Positions 26,559-35,525 of a stretch of 64,000 nt of DNA are shown here, piece after piece (positions within the stretch are counted from its first letter, which is position 1; the number at the start of each line of letters is the position of its first letter). The position numbers and the translations under genes were made by a program. Source of the stretch: Clostridiaceae bacterium (lineage in GTDB: Bacteria > Bacillota > Clostridia > Saccharofermentanales > DTU023); contig JAAZKT010000001.1 of the NCBI GenBank assembly GCA_012799695.1, positions 17,658-81,657 on the forward strand, written 5' to 3'. The notes below the pieces were generated by a model. That model saw only the letters and a list, made by a program, of their open reading frames with translations. It had not been told where the DNA came from and ran no database searches.

Positions 26559-26574
26559 ATGTACATATGTACAT
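26559..26574. promoter_or_regulatory. Perfect 16-bp palindrome ATGTACATATGTACAT upstream of the SorC-type regulator gene
   Basis: It lies 16-31 nt upstream of the sorC-like ATG (26543) and contains TACAtaTGTA. It is a candidate operator. Confidence 0.4.
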
Positions 26575-26611: not shown

Positions 26612-27208
26612 TTAGTGTCTGTCAATGGATTTTGACGCACATATGTGCACGTTTCTGTATTTATATGAGTTGTTCTTGTCTTCCGATTCAAATACTGAAA
26701 ATTGCGGATAACAATGCGCATAAAAACGGGCAACGCTTTCGTCACTGCCCGAATATTTCACCATCCACAGTCTCATGCAATGGTTATAGATGCTATCCGG
26801 TGAGTAGCAGTAACTGAACATGTGTGCCCAACAACCCTCGGTCATAACATTAGGATTGTCGGAAAGAAGATAATGCAAAGATAAATTAGAGCTTTCAGGA
26901 TCCGGTTTGTATGAGCTTTTCACCAGATATCGGTAATTCCTCGAAAACAAGTACTCATCTCCACCTTTTGAGTCATAGAATTGCAGCAGAAATGTCGAGC
27001 CGTCGTAGCTCAGTTCATTGACAGTAGAGTCGCCCCCTTGATCGGCATACATCTGGTAGATTCGCACTTTAGCCTCGCACCCCATGGCAGTACTGTTTTC
27101 AAAATCCGCCCATGCCCTTTCTCCTGCCAAGAGAGTCTCTACGTCCAGAACCACACAGCCGTCCGCCATCGCCTCTTCCGCAGAATAGTTCTTGCGCGTA
27201 TCCGCCAA
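26612..27208 (-). CDS. Stand-alone, truncated paralog of the BlaR1-like extracellular sensor domain (function unknown)
   Basis: A 198-aa ORF (TTG start at 27208 with AAGGAG 10 nt upstream, or ATG 39 nt further in). Residues 1 to about 147 align almost colinearly with residues about 352-498 of the BlaR1-like protein (for example KNYSAEEA.ADGCVV, AWADFENSTA, ELSYDGSTFLLQFYDSKG, PDPESSNLSLHYLLSD). The tail is unrelated, and there is no signal peptide or TM segment. Confidence 0.5.
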   Translation of the reverse strand: MADTRKNYSAEEAMADGCVVLDVETLLAGERAWADFENSTAMGCEAKVRIYQMYADQGGDSTVNELSYDGSTFLLQFYDSKGGDEYLFSRNYRYLVKSSYKPDPESSNLSLHYLLSDNPNVMTEGCWAHMFSYCYSPDSIYNHCMRLWMVKYSGSDESVARFYAHCYPQFSVFESEDKNNSYKYRNVHICASKSIDRH

Positions 27209-27222
27209 ACGCGCTTCACTCC
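26771..27222. repeat. Copy A of an approximately 450-bp dispersed duplication (partner at 31861..32321)
   Basis: Aligned base by base by eye, identity is about 85-90 percent, with a 2-nt indel at one end and a roughly 9-nt indel at the other. Both copies have the same orientation. Confidence 0.9.
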
Positions 27223-27257
27223 TTCTTTCACCCTAAGCCGACATAGACTCTTCAACT

Positions 27258-27287
27258 ACTCTAACGCGTTAGAAAAATGTCATTCTA
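27258..27287 (-). promoter_or_regulatory. Putative promoter -10 plus BlaI-type operator in front of the stand-alone sensor-domain gene
   Basis: The reverse strand reads TAGAAT (27287..27282), 6 nt, then TTTCTAACGCGTTAGAGT (27275..27258). The core TCTAACGCGTTAGA (27260..27273) is a perfect palindrome. The layout matches the blaI-like promoter. Confidence 0.5.
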
Positions 27288-27442
27288 GGCCATTGGACTG
27301 AATTTTTAAGAGGGAAATGGACTGAATTTGGCGTGAACGAAATAATATGCAGGATTTCATGCTACAATCTAACCAAGCTATTTTCATTTGAGTTTATCTG
27401 AGTTGATTTTTGATTGGCAAATACTCCAAAAGAGGAAAGACC

Positions 27443-28342
27443 ATGGTAAAAAACAACTCGTCACCCGCAATAGACAATCTAACGCTGAACGGAATCCCCG
27501 TAAGTATCCGCTACGACTATCTCTTTAAAAAGATATTCGCATCGGAAGACAGCAAAAGCGCTGTCGCGCATCTCATCCACCTGACGACAGGCCTTCGCAA
27601 GGAAGATGTGAGCGATTTGACAATCTCGAACCCTTATCTGCTGTTCCACAACATAAGGGATAAGCGCAGCATCGTCGACATCCTCATCAGGTTGAAGGAT
27701 GGCAAAAGAATCAATATTGAGATGCAAAACCACTGGCATCCGTTCTATCCCGAGCGAGCCATCTATTATTGGTCGCTCATGTATCAGGATACGTCGCGCG
27801 CAAGAGAGGGCTATAATAAGCTTAGCAAGTGCATCGGCATCCACTTGCTTAACGAAGCCTTCCATTTAGGCGAAAAACTACAATCGACGTATGCGATACG
27901 CGAAGAAAACGGTTCACTTTTATCGGACGTCTTGGAATTACACTTCTTTGATCTGACGAAGTTGCCGGAAGAAACAAAAGAACTGTTGCAAAGTGAAATC
28001 AGTGAATTGGAGCGTTGGTTGCTGTTCATACGAACAGACAGTCAGGAAGTGCGTAACGTGCTATCGGAAGGAGACGAACTCATGAGTGAATGCAATGACA
28101 AAGTGCAATCTGTTTTCTATACCCCGAGCGAGCGGGAAATTTACATCCGCGAACACATCGCCGAGATGGATCACTACTCGATCATGCGGGAAAAGTATGA
28201 GAGCGGCCTTAAAGAGGGCCTGCAGAAAGGCAAAGAAGAAGCCAAGCTAAACATCGCCAGAGCCTTGCTAAAAAGCGGAATCGACAAAGATATCATTCAA
28301 CAGACAACTGGGTTGGATCGGGAACAACTTGAAAACTTGTAA
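27443..28342 (+). CDS. Rpn-family PD-(D/E)XK recombination-promoting nuclease / putative transposase
   Basis: From ORF 27410..28342, with the ATG at 27443 and GAGGAA upstream. It shows the family start IRYDYLFKKIF, the nuclease core SIVDILIRLKDGKRINIEMQ and the typical C-terminal helical tail (KEEAKLNIARALLKSGIDKDIIQQTTGL). Confidence 0.8.
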   Translation: MVKNNSSPAIDNLTLNGIPVSIRYDYLFKKIFASEDSKSAVAHLIHLTTGLRKEDVSDLTISNPYLLFHNIRDKRSIVDILIRLKDGKRINIEMQNHWHPFYPERAIYYWSLMYQDTSRAREGYNKLSKCIGIHLLNEAFHLGEKLQSTYAIREENGSLLSDVLELHFFDLTKLPEETKELLQSEISELERWLLFIRTDSQEVRNVLSEGDELMSECNDKVQSVFYTPSEREIYIREHIAEMDHYSIMREKYESGLKEGLQKGKEEAKLNIARALLKSGIDKDIIQQTTGLDREQLENL

Positions 28343-28505: not shown

Positions 28506-29162
28506 TTATGCCCCAAGTTTCAAGTCTGGAATGACAATAACTTTATCGGCGATCTCCTTCAATGAATTGTCGTGCGTCGCGATGACGATGGACTTCCCGC
28601 TCTTTTGCAGTTTTCTGAGAAGTCCGATGACGATCTCCTTGTTGCCTTCGTCGAGGCTGCCGGTCGGCTCATCGCAAAGGATCATTTCGCACGGTTTCAA
28701 GAGCAGCCTCGCGATCGCGATCCGTTGCTGCTCACCGCCCGAGCATTCAAAGATGCGTTTTTCAAGGAAGTTTTCTTCAAGTCCCACCTCCGCCAACGCA
28801 ACTCTTTTGAATGTCTGCTTATCCGCACGAGAAGCCTTGATCATCTCAAGAGCGATATCCAAATTCTGTTCCACGGTCATGTGGTTAATGAGAGCGAAGT
28901 CCTGAAAAAGGTAGCCGATCTTCTGTGCCAGTATCTTCTCCGCCTGGTGCGAGAAGGGCTTCACATTCTTCTTGCCCCACCAGACGATCTCACCGCGATC
29001 GGGCGTCTCGATCAGGCCGAGAATATTGAGCAACGTCGATTTGCCGGAACCGGATACACCCGAAAGGACGACCATTTCTCCCGCCCGGATAGAATCTGTC
29101 ATGTTGCGCAGTACGGGTATTCTGCCGAATGATTTATGTAGCCCGCGCCATTCGATTTGCAT
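28506..29162 (-). CDS. ABC transporter ATP-binding protein (lactococcin-972-group/FtsE-MacB-like)
   Basis: Walker A GVSGSGKST, Q-loop, signature CSGGEQQR, Walker B ILCDEPTGSLD and H-loop IATHD. Its ATG overlaps the permease stop (TAATG). Confidence 0.9.
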   Translation of the reverse strand: MQIEWRGLHKSFGRIPVLRNMTDSIRAGEMVVLSGVSGSGKSTLLNILGLIETPDRGEIVWWGKKNVKPFSHQAEKILAQKIGYLFQDFALINHMTVEQNLDIALEMIKASRADKQTFKRVALAEVGLEENFLEKRIFECSGGEQQRIAIARLLLKPCEMILCDEPTGSLDEGNKEIVIGLLRKLQKSGKSIVIATHDNSLKEIADKVIVIPDLKLGA

Positions 29163-31375
29163 TATTTTTCCCCCTTTAGCATCGTTGCCATGCGTTTTTG
29201 AATGCGCCGTGTGAAGAGTATGTGGATGAGCACATCAAGCCCAAGCAGTCCTGTAAAAAGCGCCAGCGAGGTGTTAAACGCCAACTTAACTTCCATGAAA
29301 TCAAAAGTGTATCCCTCATAACTAAGGTTCATGATCTGCCTGAAAAAATCCGGGAACAATGTAACGGCAAGTAAAGCGGTTACGTATGGAATCAGCACGC
29401 GCAGCCACAAGAAACGGTAACGGCGCAAGAATGGTGTTCCGTGAAGATATGCTAAGTTGAGCCACTTGTTCTTGTCCAGAAAGTATACTGCCGCGTTCTG
29501 GTAGCTTAAGAATGCAAAGCTGACGAGCAAATACGCCATGATGACCGCGGGGCGGCGCACTGCTTGCAAGTTAAGTTCTTTTGTCTGTATCATCGGTTCG
29601 GAGCAAAGCTCGTACCAGTCGGGAGAATATCCTCCCGCATCCATGACCTTGCGGATACTCTCCCTGTTTTCCACCGTATCCGGAACGTAATTCGCGTAAG
29701 CCTTCGCATGAGCGGACGACACGAGGATAAGGATGGAGTCGTACGCCACCTCACCGGTCGGGAGGAGAATCTTCTGATTCCGCTTGATCGGGATCGTCTT
29801 TTTCCCTCTTGTCAGTTCATCCAACATAAATGTACTGGCGTCTTCAAGCTTAGCGCCTTCCGGAACGAGGAGAACGGTCGTTTCTGGAGGAGCATCGAAT
29901 TGAATCTGTTCGCCGTCCGCATCAAGGATTTTGTTCATGAGAGTCACTTGGTATGAAATTTGCGCACAGCCAAGTTGGACTTCTGTCGTCATCAGTTCGC
30001 CTTTTTCGTCGATGCCCTTAATCTCGATGGCGCCACGCGCTATATAGTTTGATGTGAGGGCTCCCCACTCATGCTGATGCTTTTTGAAGTAGTTTTTTAT
30101 CTCACTGCTCTTTGACATACGTTTTGCTTCGTCTTCAAAGGGAAGTGTCGCGTCCTCCACATGGAACGCAATTTGATTGCGCGCGTATCGCCGCTCGGCG
30201 CGAGAAGCATTGTATAGACTATTCAGTGGTGGAAAAAGGTCGAAGAGCTGGGCAGCGATGAGGAGCACAAGAATAATTTTCAGAACGAGACTGATGTTGG
30301 AAAAGAGGGTAAGTGAACTTGTCTTTTTCGTCGAGATAACGGGGCGGACGCGCTTAATATAAATGACGGCGATGCCGAAGGACAACGCTATCATAAGCAG
30401 AACAGCCGCGATAAAGAGGAGAAGCAGTTTCAGAAACTCGAGGAAAAGCGCATTCCAGTACGTAACCGTCACGAGCAATGTAGCGAGTGTCGTCACGAGA
30501 AGAGTGAGCGCCATCCATCCGTTGAACGGCAGGAACAGCTTAAACGCAATCGCGCTCGTCGATTGGCCGAGCATCTTGCGAATACCGATCTCCTTTGACA
30601 TTTCTACGACATCCAATGAATAGCTGGCGACGATAATGGCGAACAGTGCGGCAGCGAAAAGATAAATAATCGTATAAGCGGGTCCCGTTTCACTTTCTGC
30701 AAAGAGCTGCATGGTTTCGTTGAATTCGTCATAAGGATGGATTCCGCCAAAATACGGATATTCATTCTGCTCATACAGTCGGAGAAGGCGCAACGCCTCC
30801 TGTCGCCGCTCAGTCACCAGATGACCTCGAATGGAAGGAAAGTCGCTCTCAGGGCGGCCGGCGAATCGCTCACGCGCCATACTCATCGGACTATAGAGCT
30901 GTTTGACCTTCTCTCCGTCGAGTTCTGAGGCTGACAAATCCGTCATTCTCAGAATAGTTCCCTGCTCGTCTTCCGGCGGCCATACGTATGCTCGGGTGGC
31001 TGTCCGGCTCCAATCACAGGCTGGATCGCTGTAAAAAAATGGAGGGAGCAACTCCTTCTCATTGGAATGGATATACGTCTGCCCGTAAATCGTCTCGTCC
31101 TCAAGTATCGTTGTAACTTGAAGCACAAGATCGCCTTCGACCGCCTCCGTGATTTCCATCAAGTCGTCAAACAACTTCAGCGGCGTCTCCGTATCATAAT
31201 AATTGATCCAAAGACTGACGGTCTTTTCCGGGGCGAAGCCGGGCATCTCTTTGATTAAGGCTTCGGGGCTAAACTTCTTATGGTGATTTTCTTCGAACAT
31301 GATGCGGCCTTGTGACACACAGAGGATCGTCAACAGAACGAGGAAGAAAAGAAGAAATAATCGTCTCTTAAGCAT
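29162..31375 (-). CDS. ABC transporter permease, FtsX-like/DUF1430-type (bacteriocin-associated integral membrane protein family)
   Basis: A 737-aa protein with an N-terminal TM segment, a large extracytoplasmic domain, a TM cluster carrying the FtsX-type motif GIRKMLGQS, a second extracytoplasmic domain and a C-terminal TM cluster. The family assignment is made by architecture and needs an HMM check. Confidence 0.7.
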   Translation of the reverse strand: MLKRRLFLLFFLVLLTILCVSQGRIMFEENHHKKFSPEALIKEMPGFAPEKTVSLWINYYDTETPLKLFDDLMEITEAVEGDLVLQVTTILEDETIYGQTYIHSNEKELLPPFFYSDPACDWSRTATRAYVWPPEDEQGTILRMTDLSASELDGEKVKQLYSPMSMARERFAGRPESDFPSIRGHLVTERRQEALRLLRLYEQNEYPYFGGIHPYDEFNETMQLFAESETGPAYTIIYLFAAALFAIIVASYSLDVVEMSKEIGIRKMLGQSTSAIAFKLFLPFNGWMALTLLVTTLATLLVTVTYWNALFLEFLKLLLLFIAAVLLMIALSFGIAVIYIKRVRPVISTKKTSSLTLFSNISLVLKIILVLLIAAQLFDLFPPLNSLYNASRAERRYARNQIAFHVEDATLPFEDEAKRMSKSSEIKNYFKKHQHEWGALTSNYIARGAIEIKGIDEKGELMTTEVQLGCAQISYQVTLMNKILDADGEQIQFDAPPETTVLLVPEGAKLEDASTFMLDELTRGKKTIPIKRNQKILLPTGEVAYDSILILVSSAHAKAYANYVPDTVENRESIRKVMDAGGYSPDWYELCSEPMIQTKELNLQAVRRPAVIMAYLLVSFAFLSYQNAAVYFLDKNKWLNLAYLHGTPFLRRYRFLWLRVLIPYVTALLAVTLFPDFFRQIMNLSYEGYTFDFMEVKLAFNTSLALFTGLLGLDVLIHILFTRRIQKRMATMLKGEK

Positions 31376-31483
31376 ATCGATACTCCAAATATGAAGGTGT
31401 CATTCTTAGCACACGGCACAAGCATCTCTTTTCGAGATACTCCCTCCTTCATCATTCTTAGGTGAGAAGGAGAGAAACGAATC

Positions 31484-33349
31484 CTATTTCATTCCGGTAG
31501 GAAATGTCTCCCCGTTCTCATCAAGCAGAACGAGTGTTCCGTCCCGAATGACAATGTCAAAAAGCTCTCCGACGATAGACGGATACTCCGCCACGCCCCA
31601 GTTTTTCATCTGCACTTTCAGCGTGCCGTCTTCTTCTTGGAAAAAGCTGATGACGCCGCGGTTTGGGGCTGGAGAGAAAAGTCCGGCATACTCGAACTGA
31701 TCGCCTTCAAAAACAGTCAAAGTGAAGGTAGCGACACCGGAGGTTGGCCCATAGCCGAGGCAACATTTTTCCTCTATCCCGTCGTTGTCGATGTCGACAA
31801 AAGCGAGTCCAAATCCACGTTGAAGAAGGTATCCGTTGTCAATGAGCCGGCTAAACAATCTCTCGCATTGGTTATAGATGCTATCCGGCGAGTAGTACGA
31901 ACTAAACATGTGTGCCAAATAACCCTCGGCAGTCACATTAGGATCGTCGGAAAGAAGATAATGCAAAGATAAATTTGAGCTTTCAGGATCCGGTTGGAAT
32001 AAGCTTTTCACCAGATATTTGTAATTCCTCGAATACAAGTATTCATCTACACCTTTTGAGTCATAGAATTGCAGCAGAAATGTCGAGCCGTCGTAGCTCA
32101 GTTCTTTGACAGTATAGACGCCCCTTTGATAAGCATACATCTGGTAGATTCTCACTTTCGCCTCGCGCCCCGCGGCAGTGCTGTTTTCAAAATCCGCCCA
32201 TGCCTTCTCGCCTGCAAGCATCGTCTCCCCGTCCATCACCACACAGCCGTCCGCCTCCGCTTCTTCCGCGGAATAATTCTTGCGTATATCCGCCAACGCC
32301 GGCCACGATTCCTTCACCTCCGCTTCGGTACGTTTTGACACATCTGTCTCAGTGGATTTAGGCACCTCCGTTTCAGTGGGTTTCGACACATCAATGTCCG
32401 TTTTAGGAGGATAGGTCAGAAAACATACGGCTAAAATAACACCTGCCGCGACGACTGCCAAAATAACCCAGAAAGTCGGCTTCTTATAATTCAACACACG
32501 CTTCACTCGTTCTTTCACCCCGATTTCGCCAAAAGCGAGAGGGCACGCGGCGATCCGACCGTGAGAAATGCTGCAGGTGAGCAGCGACTGAGAATAATCG
32601 GCTCTCTGTTCTCGGTTCAATCCTTTGATAACTCTTTCGTCGCAGGCAAGCTCGACATCGCGGCAAAACAAGACGTACGCGATCCACATGACCGGATTAA
32701 ACCAGTGAAGTGAAAGCAACAGATAACCAAATGGTTTAATCCAATGGTCTTTTCGTGCGATGTGTGCTCGTTCATGAGCGAGCACATAATCTACATCCGA
32801 CTCCGACAAAGAAAACGGAAGATAAATCTGCGGTCGTATTAGACCGAGCACAAAGGGAGACGCGATCCTTTCGCTTTTCCATACACCCAGTTCTAACCGA
32901 ACCGCCGTCTTTACCTCGCGTTTCAGGCGCAAATAGCTGATCAGGGCGTAAAGCAGCATCACCGCAACGCCCACCACCCAGATAACGAAGGCAATGGATA
33001 CGCTAGTTCGCACAGGATGGCTACCGGTGACGGGATCGGGCGCCAAGGACTCTTTAAGAATGGGATTGACGACACGATTAACGTAAGCAATACCGCTATG
33101 GATCGCCGGCTCTTCCGCCACCAAAATCTCGGGGCCGACGATCTCGCCGCTCGGAATCAGACTCAGCGGACTTTCAATGGAAAAGGGGAAGAGCAACCGC
33201 AACGCGACCAGTCCCCACAAAAAGGGAAATACGCGCTTCGGCACTTTTCGAAAAATTACTCGAATCAGTATAACCGCAAGTGCGAGATACGATGCGGTCA
33301 CTCCCAGATTGACCATATTCAGGAATAACTCATTCATGCTTCGTCTCAC
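31484..33349 (-). CDS. BlaR1/MecR1-family M56 sensor metalloprotease with a non-PBP extracellular C-terminal domain
   Basis: M56 Zn motif HERAHIARKDHW (HEXXH at 32762..32776) within an N-terminal 4-TM region, then a TM segment at about residues 292-312. An extracellular region of about 300 aa follows, with no SxxK/KTG penicillin-binding motifs. The likely start is ATG 33337 (MNELFLN), overlapping the blaI stop (ATGAATGA). Confidence 0.85.
   Translation of the reverse strand: MRRSMNELFLNMVNLGVTASYLALAVILIRVIFRKVPKRVFPFLWGLVALRLLFPFSIESPLSLIPSGEIVGPEILVAEEPAIHSGIAYVNRVVNPILKESLAPDPVTGSHPVRTSVSIAFVIWVVGVAVMLLYALISYLRLKREVKTAVRLELGVWKSERIASPFVLGLIRPQIYLPFSLSESDVDYVLAHERAHIARKDHWIKPFGYLLLSLHWFNPVMWIAYVLFCRDVELACDERVIKGLNREQRADYSQSLLTCSISHGRIAACPLAFGEIGVKERVKRVLNYKKPTFWVILAVVAAGVILAVCFLTYPPKTDIDVSKPTETEVPKSTETDVSKRTEAEVKESWPALADIRKNYSAEEAEADGCVVMDGETMLAGEKAWADFENSTAAGREAKVRIYQMYAYQRGVYTVKELSYDGSTFLLQFYDSKGVDEYLYSRNYKYLVKSLFQPDPESSNLSLHYLLSDDPNVTAEGYLAHMFSSYYSPDSIYNQCERLFSRLIDNGYLLQRGFGLAFVDIDNDGIEEKCCLGYGPTSGVATFTLTVFEGDQFEYAGLFSPAPNRGVISFFQEEDGTLKVQMKNWGVAEYPSIVGELFDIVIRDGTLVLLDENGETFPTGMK
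31861..32321. repeat. Copy B of the approximately 450-bp duplication (partner at 26771..27222)
   Basis: See copy A. This copy lies inside the BlaR1-like gene and encodes residues about 343-497. Confidence 0.9.
32306..32401 (-). repeat. Four imperfect 24-bp (8-aa) tandem repeats encoding the acidic juxtamembrane linker of the BlaR1-like protein
   Basis: The protein reads TDIDVSKP / TETEVPKS / TETDVSKR / TEAEVKES, directly after the TM segment. Confidence 0.85.
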
Positions 33350-33716
33350 TTCTGTACTGGTCGATCATCTTCTGCACCTCGTCGATTTCGTCTTCTGAAA
33401 TCTTCTGGTGCTTCGTGAAGGCTGCAATAAAGGCCGGCAGGGAGCCCTCAAACTTCTTCTCCACCAACTCGCTGATCTCCGCCGCCTGCACTTCCTCCCG
33501 TGAAATGAGGGACGTTACGATCGTATCTTCGTTCTGTACGACGCCGCGATCCGAAAGTCGCCTGATAACGGTGTACGTCGTCGTGGGCTTCCAGCCCAAC
33601 TCTTCCTCGCACAGTTGAACAAGCTCCGAGCTTTTAATTGGCTCATGCTCCCACAGAATCAGACAAAATCGATATTCGCTCTCAAAGACTTTTGGCGTTT
33701 CCATCATTCCCTCCAT
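33330..33716 (-). CDS. BlaI/MecI/CopY-family transcriptional repressor
   Basis: A 128-aa winged-helix protein (ESEYRFCLILWEHEPIKSSELVQLCEEELGWKPTTTYTVIRRLSDRGVV) with a C-terminal dimerisation helix. It overlaps the sensor protease gene. Confidence 0.9.
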   Translation of the reverse strand: MEGMMETPKVFESEYRFCLILWEHEPIKSSELVQLCEEELGWKPTTTYTVIRRLSDRGVVQNEDTIVTSLISREEVQAAEISELVEKKFEGSLPAFIAAFTKHQKISEDEIDEVQKMIDQYRSETKHE

Positions 33717-33740
33717 CGCTCTAGCACGGACTTTTCCGTT

Positions 33741-33793
33741 ACTCTAATGCATTAGAGTTTATTTCATTCTAACCGATTAGAGCGAAATGTCAA
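33741..33793 (-). promoter_or_regulatory. blaI-like promoter with two TCTAA-N4-TTAGA dyads (putative operators)
   Basis: The reverse strand reads TTGACA (33793..33788), 16 nt, then TAGAAT (33771..33766). Dyad 1, TCTAACCGATTAGA (33768..33781), overlaps the -10. Dyad 2 is the perfect 18-bp palindrome ACTCTAATGCATTAGAGT (33741..33758), 24 nt before the ATG. Confidence 0.55.
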
Positions 33794-33867
33794 GAGACGA
33801 ATAAAAAAATCGGCAATAATTCAATTTTTTTTGATTTTAGGCGCACTCTCTTTTTCACTTTACGCGA

Positions 33868-33898
33868 TCAATTTCGACAAAATGAATATTGTCACAAG
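33868..33898 (+). repeat. Approximately 30-bp sequence related to 37261..37288 (same orientation)
   Basis: TCAATT-TCGACAAAATG-(7 nt)-TCACAAG here compares with TCAATT-(4 nt)-TCGACAAAATG-TCACAAG at 37261..37288. Confidence 0.6.
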
Positions 33899-33952
33899 GT
33901 AAGGGCGATTATTTCCTCACAAATATTCTAAGCCTCTCATTATACTCCGGGC

Positions 33953-34924
33953 ATGAGCCATAACGTCAAAAAGTATGTCTACGGAAAACCTGCACTTGAT
34001 TATTGGCGAGTGCCGTCAATCCGAGGCAACATCGAGCCGGTCGACATGATCTTTCCTGACGAGTACGTTATCTTCACCGATAAGCCCATTTACCGTCCTG
34101 ATCGCGCCATCATACACACGTGCAGTATCCCCGGTGCCAATAAATACGTCAAAGGACGAGCGTGCACACTCCCGCTCGTATTTCTTCAAGTCGCCCTGGA
34201 GTACAGCATCCTCGAATTGATTTTTCTAGGACTCCAAATCTGTTCCTACCGCGAAGGCGATCAGCCTCGATGCACCGTCGAAGAACTGCGTGCCTGCGCC
34301 GAAGAACTGCGAGGACATCGAGGGCGAAGAAAAGCACTCCGAGCTATTCGCTATCTAGACAACAACTCACGGTCTCCGATGGAATCAATTCTTTACATGT
34401 TTCTGCGTTTGCCCAATGCGCTAGGAGGGTGCGGCTTTAGCGAAATCGTGCTCAATGAAAAGATTGTTTTGGAAGGGGGCAAAACGTACTTTGCAGACCT
34501 CTACGTCCCTTCTTGTAAACTTGATATCGAATACGACAGTGAAGAATTTCACAGCAGCGCCTCGGCATTATCAAAAGATCGGGAGCGTACCGCTCATCTA
34601 GAAGCAGAAGGCTATCACGTCGTTTCAGTGAACTACGCAAAATTGAACAACCTCAAAGCCTTTCAAAGCTTAGCGCGCCAACTCTCCCATCTGATACGAA
34701 AACGCATTCACATTCGCGCAAGAAAGTATTTTGAGAACTTCGTCGCCTTGCGCGATCTGCTGTTCAAGAAAGGACTTAGTCTTCGCTCACGTTTCCGCAA
34801 AATCCACTGTCGAGAAGTACCCCAGTTCGCCGGAGTACGCATCATGTATAGAATCTACCTTGCTGCCTGGAACAGACTCATCCGGCACCCCAACCTCCCC
34901 TTGGTATTAACGCGAGCACCTTAA
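33953..34924 (+). CDS. DUF559/Vsr-like endonuclease-domain protein (hypothetical)
   Basis: A 323-aa protein. The C-terminal half carries the pattern YFADLYVPSCKLDIEYDSEEFHSS...RTAHLEAEGYHVVSV, which is typical of DUF559-type restriction-endonuclease-like domains. No clear RBS is present, so the start is uncertain. Confidence 0.5.
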   Translation: MSHNVKKYVYGKPALDYWRVPSIRGNIEPVDMIFPDEYVIFTDKPIYRPDRAIIHTCSIPGANKYVKGRACTLPLVFLQVALEYSILELIFLGLQICSYREGDQPRCTVEELRACAEELRGHRGRRKALRAIRYLDNNSRSPMESILYMFLRLPNALGGCGFSEIVLNEKIVLEGGKTYFADLYVPSCKLDIEYDSEEFHSSASALSKDRERTAHLEAEGYHVVSVNYAKLNNLKAFQSLARQLSHLIRKRIHIRARKYFENFVALRDLLFKKGLSLRSRFRKIHCREVPQFAGVRIMYRIYLAAWNRLIRHPNLPLVLTRAP

Positions 34925-35007
34925 TCTCCTCCTCTCTTGAGTTTTGAGCGAGCGTCATTCACACGGTGCGATTAACGCGAGCACCTTAACCTCCTCATCT
35001 CTTGAGC
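34907..35007 (+). repeat. Two 36-bp direct repeats separated by 29 bp at or after the 3' end of the DUF559 gene
   Basis: ATTAACGCGAGCACCTTAATCTCCTCCTCTCTTGAG (34907..34942, spanning the stop codon) recurs at 34972..35007 with 2 mismatches. Confidence 0.85.
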
Positions 35008-35525
35008 GCTGAACAACTGCCGTACATCAAACATAAATATCGTCTTACACTCGGCTAAAACGTATCGACACTCGATTAGCCATATTCCCCACGCAATGAG
35101 AGTTGGTTTTTCTTTCAATACGAAGTACCATCACACAGAAATCGAACCCTTTTGCCTCGCTCAAGCAACTCTTTAACATCAAAAACACCCCTCCACACCC
35201 ATCCGACCACCCTCAATGTACAGTTTTTCAACTTAGAACTATTTTCTTTACCTAGTAACGCTTGTTCCTCCCTCTTCGCTCACTCTCCTTATGCAATTTT
35301 TCAACTTATATCAAAAAATTTGCGAAAGAGGGGAGGGATGGAGTGTTGACTAAAAAGAGACATTCGATGCTGGCTTGTTGATAATGTGCTGAATATGGGT
35401 TACATGGCTTTTCGTAGGGAACTCATAAGACGTTGTACTGTGATTTAATAGCTGCAGATGTTTCACATCCCTAAAAGCCGGTGACGTAGTACTCAGTCTG
35501 TCAGCGATTCGGAGCGCCCATGCGC

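Follow-up and report, generated by a model that had tools for sequence, protein, structure and literature searches.

The promoter of a blaI-like gene in the window (the whole stretch of DNA analysed, 64,000 nucleotides) carries two inverted repeats of the family consensus CTCTAA-N4-TTAGAG. These dyads are very likely the autoregulatory operators of the adjacent BlaI-like repressor, which would act through them on its own two-gene operon, judging from the features of the locus and from analogy with characterised homologues. Double dyads of this kind occur almost exclusively before blaI-like genes, and the recognition helix of the repressor is as invariant as the half-site. The first-pass annotation had assigned the dyads to the same repressor, with a diverged half-site, and the assignment is supported by the conservation of the dyads, their specificity for blaI promoters, the invariance of the helix and published binding data for homologues (PMC8457756).

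Direct reading of the minus strand between 33700 and 33800 gives TTGACA, a 16-nt spacer and TAGAAT (33793-33766), exactly as first annotated (Table 1). A promoter scan of 4.5 kb (31000-35500) returned this promoter as its sole 11/12 match. The -10 is embedded in the upstream repeat (dyad 1), as had been noticed, the two having four of the six -10 bases in common; the core of dyad 1 reads TCTAATCGGTTAGA on the minus strand and TCTAACCGATTAGA on the plus strand (33781-33768). Seven nucleotides (33765-33759) separate the -10 from the downstream repeat (dyad 2), whose perfect 18-bp symmetry was also recognised at first pass. The placement of one dyad over the spacer and -10 and of the other at the predicted start of the transcript is the double-operator architecture of the BlaI family. 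The palindrome had been placed 24 nt before the ATG, a distance that holds for the first ATG (33716) but not for the probable true start. Because homologues begin at the residue encoded by ATG 33704, and because GGAGG lies 5 nt before it, translation probably starts there, 36 nt past the palindrome, giving a 124-aa protein. The homologues are 122–124 aa in length and align from residue 5 of the longer reading frame, and the GGAGG overlaps the region of the first ATG.

Neither dyad contains a TACA/TGTA box. The TACANNTGTA core of classical Bla/Mec/Cop operators is absent from the repressor promoter, and its sole copy in the window lies at 26562, away from the promoter, which bears out the original remark that the dyads are unlike the classical box. 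The 64-kb window contains three exact copies of TCTAA-N4-TTAGA where 0.05 are expected; a count of three was not attained in any of 100 shuffles. When scored with a weight matrix built from relatives of the window locus, the three exact sites have 30.3, 23.2 and 20.1 bits. Dyad 2 attains 30.3 bits, the maximum of this family matrix, and dyad 1, at 20.1 bits, is a poorer fit to the family consensus. The same scan detected no weaker operator sites anywhere in the window, the next best score being 3.4 bits compared with 20–30 for the exact sites.

Table 1. Features of the repressor operon and of its partial copy, in positions of the window; operators and coding starts are predictions
Feature	Position	Strand	Sequence or basis
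-35 hexamer	33788..33793	-	TTGACA; direct reading and promoter scan
-10 hexamer	33766..33771	-	TAGAAT; first four bases are the end of the dyad 1 right arm
Dyad 1 (predicted operator 1)	33767..33782		CTCTAATCGGTTAGAA; core TCTAA-N4-TTAGA at 33768-33781; spans spacer and -10
Dyad 2 (predicted operator 2)	33741..33758		ACTCTAATGCATTAGAGT; perfect 18-bp palindrome; about +1 to +18 of predicted transcript
Translation start region	33702..33716	-	ATG 33716, GGAGG 33714-33710, ATG 33707, ATG 33704
BlaI/MecI/CopY-family winged-helix repressor	33330..33716	-	Pfam Penicillinase_R; 128 aa as ORF, probably 124 aa
M56 BlaR1-like membrane metalloprotease	31484..33349	-	621 aa; Pfam Peptidase_M56 at residues 12-283; HERAH (HExxH)
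Decayed promoter copy	27246..27312	-	blastn, 70.6% identity over 68 nt to 33796-33729
Remnant of second M56 gene	26767..27233	-	blastn and frame reading

The repressor is a member of the Penicillinase_R family, with a PF03965 score of 80 bits (cut-off 22.6; E 2.1e-22) and a match that spans positions 4-115 of the 115 in the profile. It can be aligned along its whole length with the structures of MecI (1SAX/1OKR) and BlaI (1XSD), and scores below all NCBIfam cut-offs for BlaI, MecI and CopY. The gene that follows is co-oriented and overlaps it by 20 nt. Its product is an M56 protein (PF05569, E 1.5e-50) with an HExxH motif, so that the two genes form a pair of the BlaI/BlaR1 type. The C-terminus of the M56 protein consists of a ~300-aa unannotated domain in place of the penicillin-binding sensor that defines the canonical beta-lactam-sensing BlaR1 and MecR1 proteins. 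No transpeptidase domain was detected with Pfam in this protein or in 10 sampled partner proteins. Judged by its domains the pair is a 'non-canonical' BlaIR pair, since the match of the M56 protein to the NCBIfam BlaR1 model is limited to the membrane and protease region (83 bits, cut-off 400; positions 11-317 of 585) and no penicillin-binding domain is present. No beta-lactamase or PBP2a gene is present near the operon.

Database searching at E below 1e-10 yields more than 8000 homologues of the repressor. The best 120 of these are 78–98% identical to it, and those that carry a source name are from Clostridia MAGs. A genome scan limited to one genome per species provided 80 loci with a repressor of 75–90% identity, in genomes annotated to the Acutalibacteraceae, Oscillospiraceae, Lachnospiraceae and Clostridiaceae. 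Comparison of the regions upstream of orthologous blaI genes, a check proposed in the first-pass annotation, shows that 77 of the 80 species-level loci keep both dyads on the promoter. Both copies of TCTAA-N4-TTAGA are exact in 61 loci, and in 16 one copy is exact and the other has 1–2 mismatches. Two of the remaining loci are cut by contig ends, and one is without dyads. No other exact site occurs in the ~450 kb of sequence flanking the 80 loci.

The consensus of these promoters begins with TTGACA, followed after 7 nt by CTCTAAT(G/A)TGTTAGAGT, the right arm of which doubles as the -10. After a further ~10 nt comes ACTCTAA(T/C)(G/A)NATTAGAG, and directly thereafter AAAGGAG and the start codon. 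TTGAC is found upstream of the gene in 77 of 81 relatives, with A as the sixth base in 66 of 71. The -10 occupies the same place in the relatives, behind a 17-nt spacer, and is mostly TAGAGT, otherwise TAGAAT or TAGACT. Among these loci, which were picked by protein similarity and are phylogenetically related, so that part of the conservation is shared ancestry, the arms of dyad 1 show 92–100% pairwise identity when anchored independently on the -35, compared with 43% at four-fold degenerate sites of the adjacent gene and 25–40% in intergenic DNA upstream of the -35. Dyad conservation is far above neutral drift, and the four-fold-site control argues against shared ancestry as its main cause. 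The 4-nt centres of the dyads are variable and lack palindromic symmetry. Measured from start to start, the dyads are mostly 24–26 bp apart (25 in the window), with values of 24, 25, 26, 28 and 32 bp observed. This combination of invariant arms, free centres and flexible spacing fits the site of a dimeric protein, not a structural hairpin.

The recognition helix, GWKPTTTYTVI[KR]RLS, is invariant in 81 of 81 proteins, with TTYTVIRRL in the window and TTYTVIKRL in most relatives. Neither the window nor the 80 loci contain a second blaI paralogue with which co-change of helix and operator might be tested. The M56 gene lies 3' of blaI in 79 of the 80 loci. Its N-terminal part is ~50% identical, while the full length of the protein ranges from 455 to 993 aa and the C-terminal parts are largely unrelated and unannotated, some with Big_14 Ig-like domains. 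The gene after M56 is convergent in most loci, which indicates that the conserved unit consists of two genes only.

Two of the loci depart from this pattern. In one (L064, 2930-3363) a blaI-like gene whose recognition helix is identical stands alone, the only one with no M56 partner downstream. All that is left of the dyads in its promoter is TCTATCGTGCTAGT and a single ATTAGAC arm; partner loss and operator loss coincide in this one case. In the other (L069, 2845-3010) the promoter and both dyads are intact, but the leader is longer by ~110 nt, which include a GC-rich inverted repeat and lie between dyad 2 and the ribosome-binding site. That the dyads stay with the promoter in spite of this leader indicates that they are promoter elements and are not tied to the ribosome-binding site.

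The association with blaI is also recovered when the motif, and not the protein, is the starting point. The pattern CTCTAA-N4-TTAGAG-N6..18-CTCTAA-N4-TTAGAG matched at least 80 loci in metagenome contigs, and 60 of the 80 double-dyad matches listed lie directly upstream of a blaI-like gene, with 54–85% protein identity. The most distant dyad-bearing protein among the listed matches is 54% identical and has the helix NWKKSTTYTVLRRL (L095). With the 80 genome loci and these 60 metagenome loci combined, the dyads keep a constant position with respect to the -35, the -10 and the ribosome-binding site in ~140 loci, and the ~140 related gene pairs come from gut, rumen and digester Clostridia. In the window, in the flanks of the 80 genome loci and in the 60 blaI-linked metagenome loci the motif points only to the operon itself. 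The 'searchable regulon motif' foreseen in the first-pass annotation is a usable probe, but one that yields, in the window, only the operon and a decayed duplicate of its promoter.

The 20 listed matches without blaI were considered as further targets and rejected, being tandem repeats, A/T-rich low-complexity sequence, one contig end and a TetR-like promoter. The last of these comes from high-GC soil and rhizosphere contigs (L110 1111-1148; also L115, L138 and L145), where a TetR-like gene has the double dyad immediately in front of it; a repressor family that is not related to BlaI seems to have come to use the half-site convergently. In three JGI contigs of the Ga02096xx series (L086 4343-4467, L154 8728-9098 and L091) the pattern arises from repeated CTCTAATCCATTAGAG-(A/T)5-CTCTAATCCATTAGAG units without a blaI-like gene, which in L154 recur at 67- and 133-bp intervals. 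These are an unrelated repeat family that shares the half-site.

A close, although not identical, precedent comes from C. thermocellum, where the motif of the homologue differs at two of the six half-site positions and by 1 bp of spacing. DAP-seq and EMSA showed that BlaI_0696 (Clo1313_0696) binds the inverted repeat GTCTAT-N5-ATAGAC and that BlaI_1845 binds GACTAT-N4-ATAGTC (Hebdon et al. 2021, PMC8457756). Each has two dyads per target, their own blaI-blaR1 operons included, and their regulons comprise three operons and one operon, respectively (PMC8457756). Both promoters and both protein N-termini were recovered from the peak FASTA files of that study. The BlaI_0696 promoter reads TTGACT-AATTG-GTCTATTTAGTATAGAC-TAATAATGTGGA-GTCTATATTGAATAGAC-TAAGGAGG and its repressor has the helix NWKKSTTYTVLKKL; the BlaI_1845 promoter reads TTGACA-ATTCTA-GACTATTATGATAGTC-TA-GACTATAGAGATAGTC, with the helix GWNKNTTYTVIKKL. 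The window repressor is 54% identical to BlaI_0696 over the N-terminal 71 aa and has the helix core TTYTV[IL][KR][KR]L in common with both proteins. The layout is likewise the same, with TTGAC(A/T), a first dyad whose right arm serves as the -10, a second dyad and the ribosome-binding site. The -10 formed in this way is TAGACT in C. thermocellum, TAGAAT in the window and mostly TAGAGT in the relatives. Paired dyads on the own blaI-blaR1-like operon and a very small regulon are further common features.

All three repressors would also share the half-site core nnCTAw, although the half-sites themselves differ, being CTCTAA in the window, GTCTAT for BlaI_0696 and GACTAT for BlaI_1845. The N4 spacing within each window dyad is that of BlaI_1845, whereas BlaI_0696 has N5. 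The start-to-start distance of 25 bp (mostly 24–26 bp in the family) compares with 31 bp for BlaI_0696 and 18 bp for BlaI_1845. The C. thermocellum operators were bound in DAP-seq and EMSA, whereas those of the window are predicted from sequence. The window locus has both the helix and the nnCTAw-N4/5-wTAGnn half-sites of a clostridial subfamily with a TTYTV helix. Because its layout is that of C. thermocellum, including a -10 derived from the right arm of dyad 1, the putative operators are placed in this subfamily as a third specificity variant. The divergence from TACA is real, and since non-TACA operators are already documented for clostridial relatives of BlaI, it is less novel than the first-pass annotation had implied.

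Comparison with the classical systems shows which features have been retained. BlaI and MecI recognise TACANNTGTA within dyads of 24–30 bp, and CopY recognises the extended RNYKACANNTGTMRNY (PMC1935004, PMC7253601). As in S. aureus and B. licheniformis, the window encodes a winged-helix Penicillinase_R repressor with an adjacent M56 gene and paired dyads over the promoter, an arrangement that serves autoregulation in those species. Helix 3 of B. licheniformis BlaI (P41-K53) enters the major groove, where the TGTA bases are read by T43, T46 and R50, with additional base contacts from Q45. In a gap-free alignment the window protein retains the three contact residues, as T46, T49 and R53. Tyr48 takes the place of Q45 (Arg in MecI), Thr that of K42 and of I44, and Arg/Lys that of L49. 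Unlike the classical operators, the half-sites are 6-mers about N4, with centres 10 bp apart, and not TACA-NN-TGTA; the partner protease also differs in having no penicillin-binding sensor domain. BlaI is cleaved at Asn101-Phe102 (PMC9834060). The aligned residues of the window protein are Ala99-Phe100, with the P1' Phe kept and Ala instead of Asn at P1, and the AAFTKH segment around them is at least 90% conserved in the family. This alignment is compatible with, rather than proof of, M56-mediated cleavage.

The similarity to CopY and CopR is confined to the Pfam family and to the presence, at the promoter, of a dyad operator for a dimer. In sequence this operator differs from RNYKACANNTGTMRNY, and the neighbouring gene encodes an M56 protease, not copA or copZ. 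No CxCx4CxC metal motif is present, the C-terminal 40 residues (ending in ...MIDQYRSETKHE) containing no Cys motif, and the score on TIGR02698 is 45 bits against a cut-off of 122, well outside the CopY/TcrY copper repressors. CenIR of C. difficile and other non-canonical BlaIR pairs have a similar organisation, with a repressor-M56 operon in which the protease carries no transpeptidase sensor (PMC13492132). Most BlaI/BlaR1-like pairs are in fact 'non-canonical' and without a beta-lactam sensor; no operator is defined for CenI in that report (PMC13492132). A full-text literature search for CTCTAA/TTAGAG together with 'repressor' retrieved unrelated papers only.

Based on these comparisons, a model can be proposed in which the repressor would shut off its own operon, comprising the repressor and the M56 membrane protease, by means of both dyads. 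Each dyad would accommodate a single dimer of the repressor, whose two recognition helices (WKPTTTYTVI[KR]RL) would each occupy a half-site. A dimer at dyad 1 would cover the promoter spacer and the -10, which is itself formed by the right arm (TTAGAg/a-T), and a dimer at dyad 2 would cover the transcription start, so that together they would exclude RNA polymerase. By analogy with BlaR1 and BlaI, the HExxH protease of the M56 protein would be activated once the variable extracytoplasmic C-terminal domain perceives a signal, and may then cut the repressor at the aligned Ala99-Phe100 position, in the linker before the dimerisation helix. The cleaved dimer would disassemble and the operon would be derepressed. 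We infer that the signal is not a beta-lactam acting through a penicillin-binding domain, because no such domain is present.

The third exact site in the window (27260-27273) was considered as an independent member of a regulon and rejected, because its flanks copy the blaI promoter and are joined to fragments of a second M56 gene. In this promoter copy the -35 has become TTAAAA (27309-27304) and the -10 is retained as TAGAAT (27287-27282). Dyad 1 is degenerate (TCCAATGGCCTAGA, 27297-27284, -4.7 bits), and dyad 2 is preserved as ACTCTAACGCGTTAGA (23.2 bits) with its centre changed from TGCA to CGCG. The M56 remnant consists of a 25-nt piece (27233-27209, matching 32520-32496) and, fused to it in a different reading frame, a C-terminal-domain copy (27208-26767, corresponding to 32296-31855) with 87% nucleotide and 80% amino acid identity. 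The region is thus a second copy of the operon that has decayed and suffered internal deletion. Within the copied region (26612-27312, minus strand) the C-terminal-domain copy persists as a TTG-initiated ORF of 198 aa, and a point change relative to the full-length gene has created AAGGAG ~10 nt 5' of this TTG. Adjoining the remnant is a gene for an Rpn-family recombination-promoting nuclease/putative transposase (27410-28342, plus strand; TIGR01784, E 3e-41), which could be connected with the rearrangement of the operon.

Other origins of the dyads can be weighed against repression by the adjacent BlaI-like protein. They might be operators of a different DNA-binding protein encoded elsewhere, and the double dyad in front of the TetR-like gene in soil contigs indicates that the sequence is not intrinsically BlaI-specific. 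This is nevertheless a very improbable explanation of the window locus, as the dyads travel with the blaI-like gene across several annotated families of Clostridia, three-quarters of the listed motif-first matches (60/80) are blaI promoters, and binding to near-identical motifs in vitro is established for homologues that have this helix core. The decay of the dyads in the single locus that has lost the M56 partner (L064) likewise counts against a regulator encoded elsewhere.

Equally little weight can be given to a role for dyad 2, and possibly dyad 1, as a nucleic-acid hairpin, for instance a 5' mRNA stem-loop affecting stability or translation. The position of dyad 2 at about +1 to +18 would suit such a structure. 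The arms of dyad 2 can pair in a 7-bp stem that closes a 4-nt loop (-5 kcal/mol, z = -3.9), and the 61-nt leader as a whole folds better than shuffled sequence (z = -2.65). The fold is weak, however, and that of dyad 1 amounts to only -1.7 kcal/mol. The half-site is also present in dyad 1, which lies in the promoter ahead of the start and would not be transcribed. Moreover, the arms are invariant and do not covary, changes in a single arm (TCTAC, in six loci) are uncompensated, and no credible Rfam match was obtained over 33500-34100. A hairpin could coexist with repressor binding, but would leave the pattern as a whole unexplained. That the palindromes are accidental, or are left over from the end of a mobile element or from a recombination site without any function in regulation, can be set aside almost completely in spite of the rearranged duplicate 6.5 kb away beside the Rpn-family nuclease/transposase-like gene. 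Chance would supply only 0.05 sites, the dyads hold their place with respect to -35, -10 and ribosome-binding site in ~140 loci, and their conservation is far above that of neutral sites. What has been duplicated is the whole promoter together with parts of the operon, rather than an element end.

With the dyads taken as operators of the BlaI-like repressor, the consensus of two CTCTAA-N4-TTAGAG sites on a TTGACA-17-TAGAGT promoter would serve for a very large subfamily in gut, rumen and digester Clostridia. CTCTAA, GTCTAT and GACTAT would then constitute a small specificity series on one recognition-helix scaffold, which could be used for genome-by-genome prediction of regulons and for the study of specificity shifts in winged-helix proteins. 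Across genomes of several Clostridia families the repressor is ~80% identical and the operator invariant, while the C-terminal parts of the M56 proteins are mostly unrelated. One speculative and rather unlikely reading of this contrast is that a conserved repressor-operator unit is combined with freely exchanged M56 ectodomains and has its own operon as sole target. If so, the ectodomain would be both the sensor and the induced product, for example a ligand-induced surface protein, and would have no sensor role over separate resistance genes.

In the window, the system appears to regulate only itself and possibly two transporter-like genes by read-through. These two genes (28506-31375, minus strand) follow the M56 gene after a 109-nt gap without a terminator-like site. 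The first encodes a 737-aa membrane protein with a weak, below cut-off match to TIGR01654 (bacteriocin-associated integral membrane proteins, E 2e-9), and is overlapped by a gene for an ABC ATPase. A homologue of the membrane protein is present in none of the 80 related loci, and the ABC ATPase has matches in six. The possibility of a conserved downstream 'output' gene was rejected, there being no conserved third gene in the 80 loci; in the window itself both genes may be read-through outputs of the operon. On the other side of the blaI promoter lies a divergent ORF of 323 aa (33953-34924, plus strand), which starts 160 bp beyond the -35 and is present in three of the 80 related loci. It is unlikely to be under the control of the dyads, and has weak, sub-threshold matches to REase_MTES_1575 (restriction-endonuclease-like).
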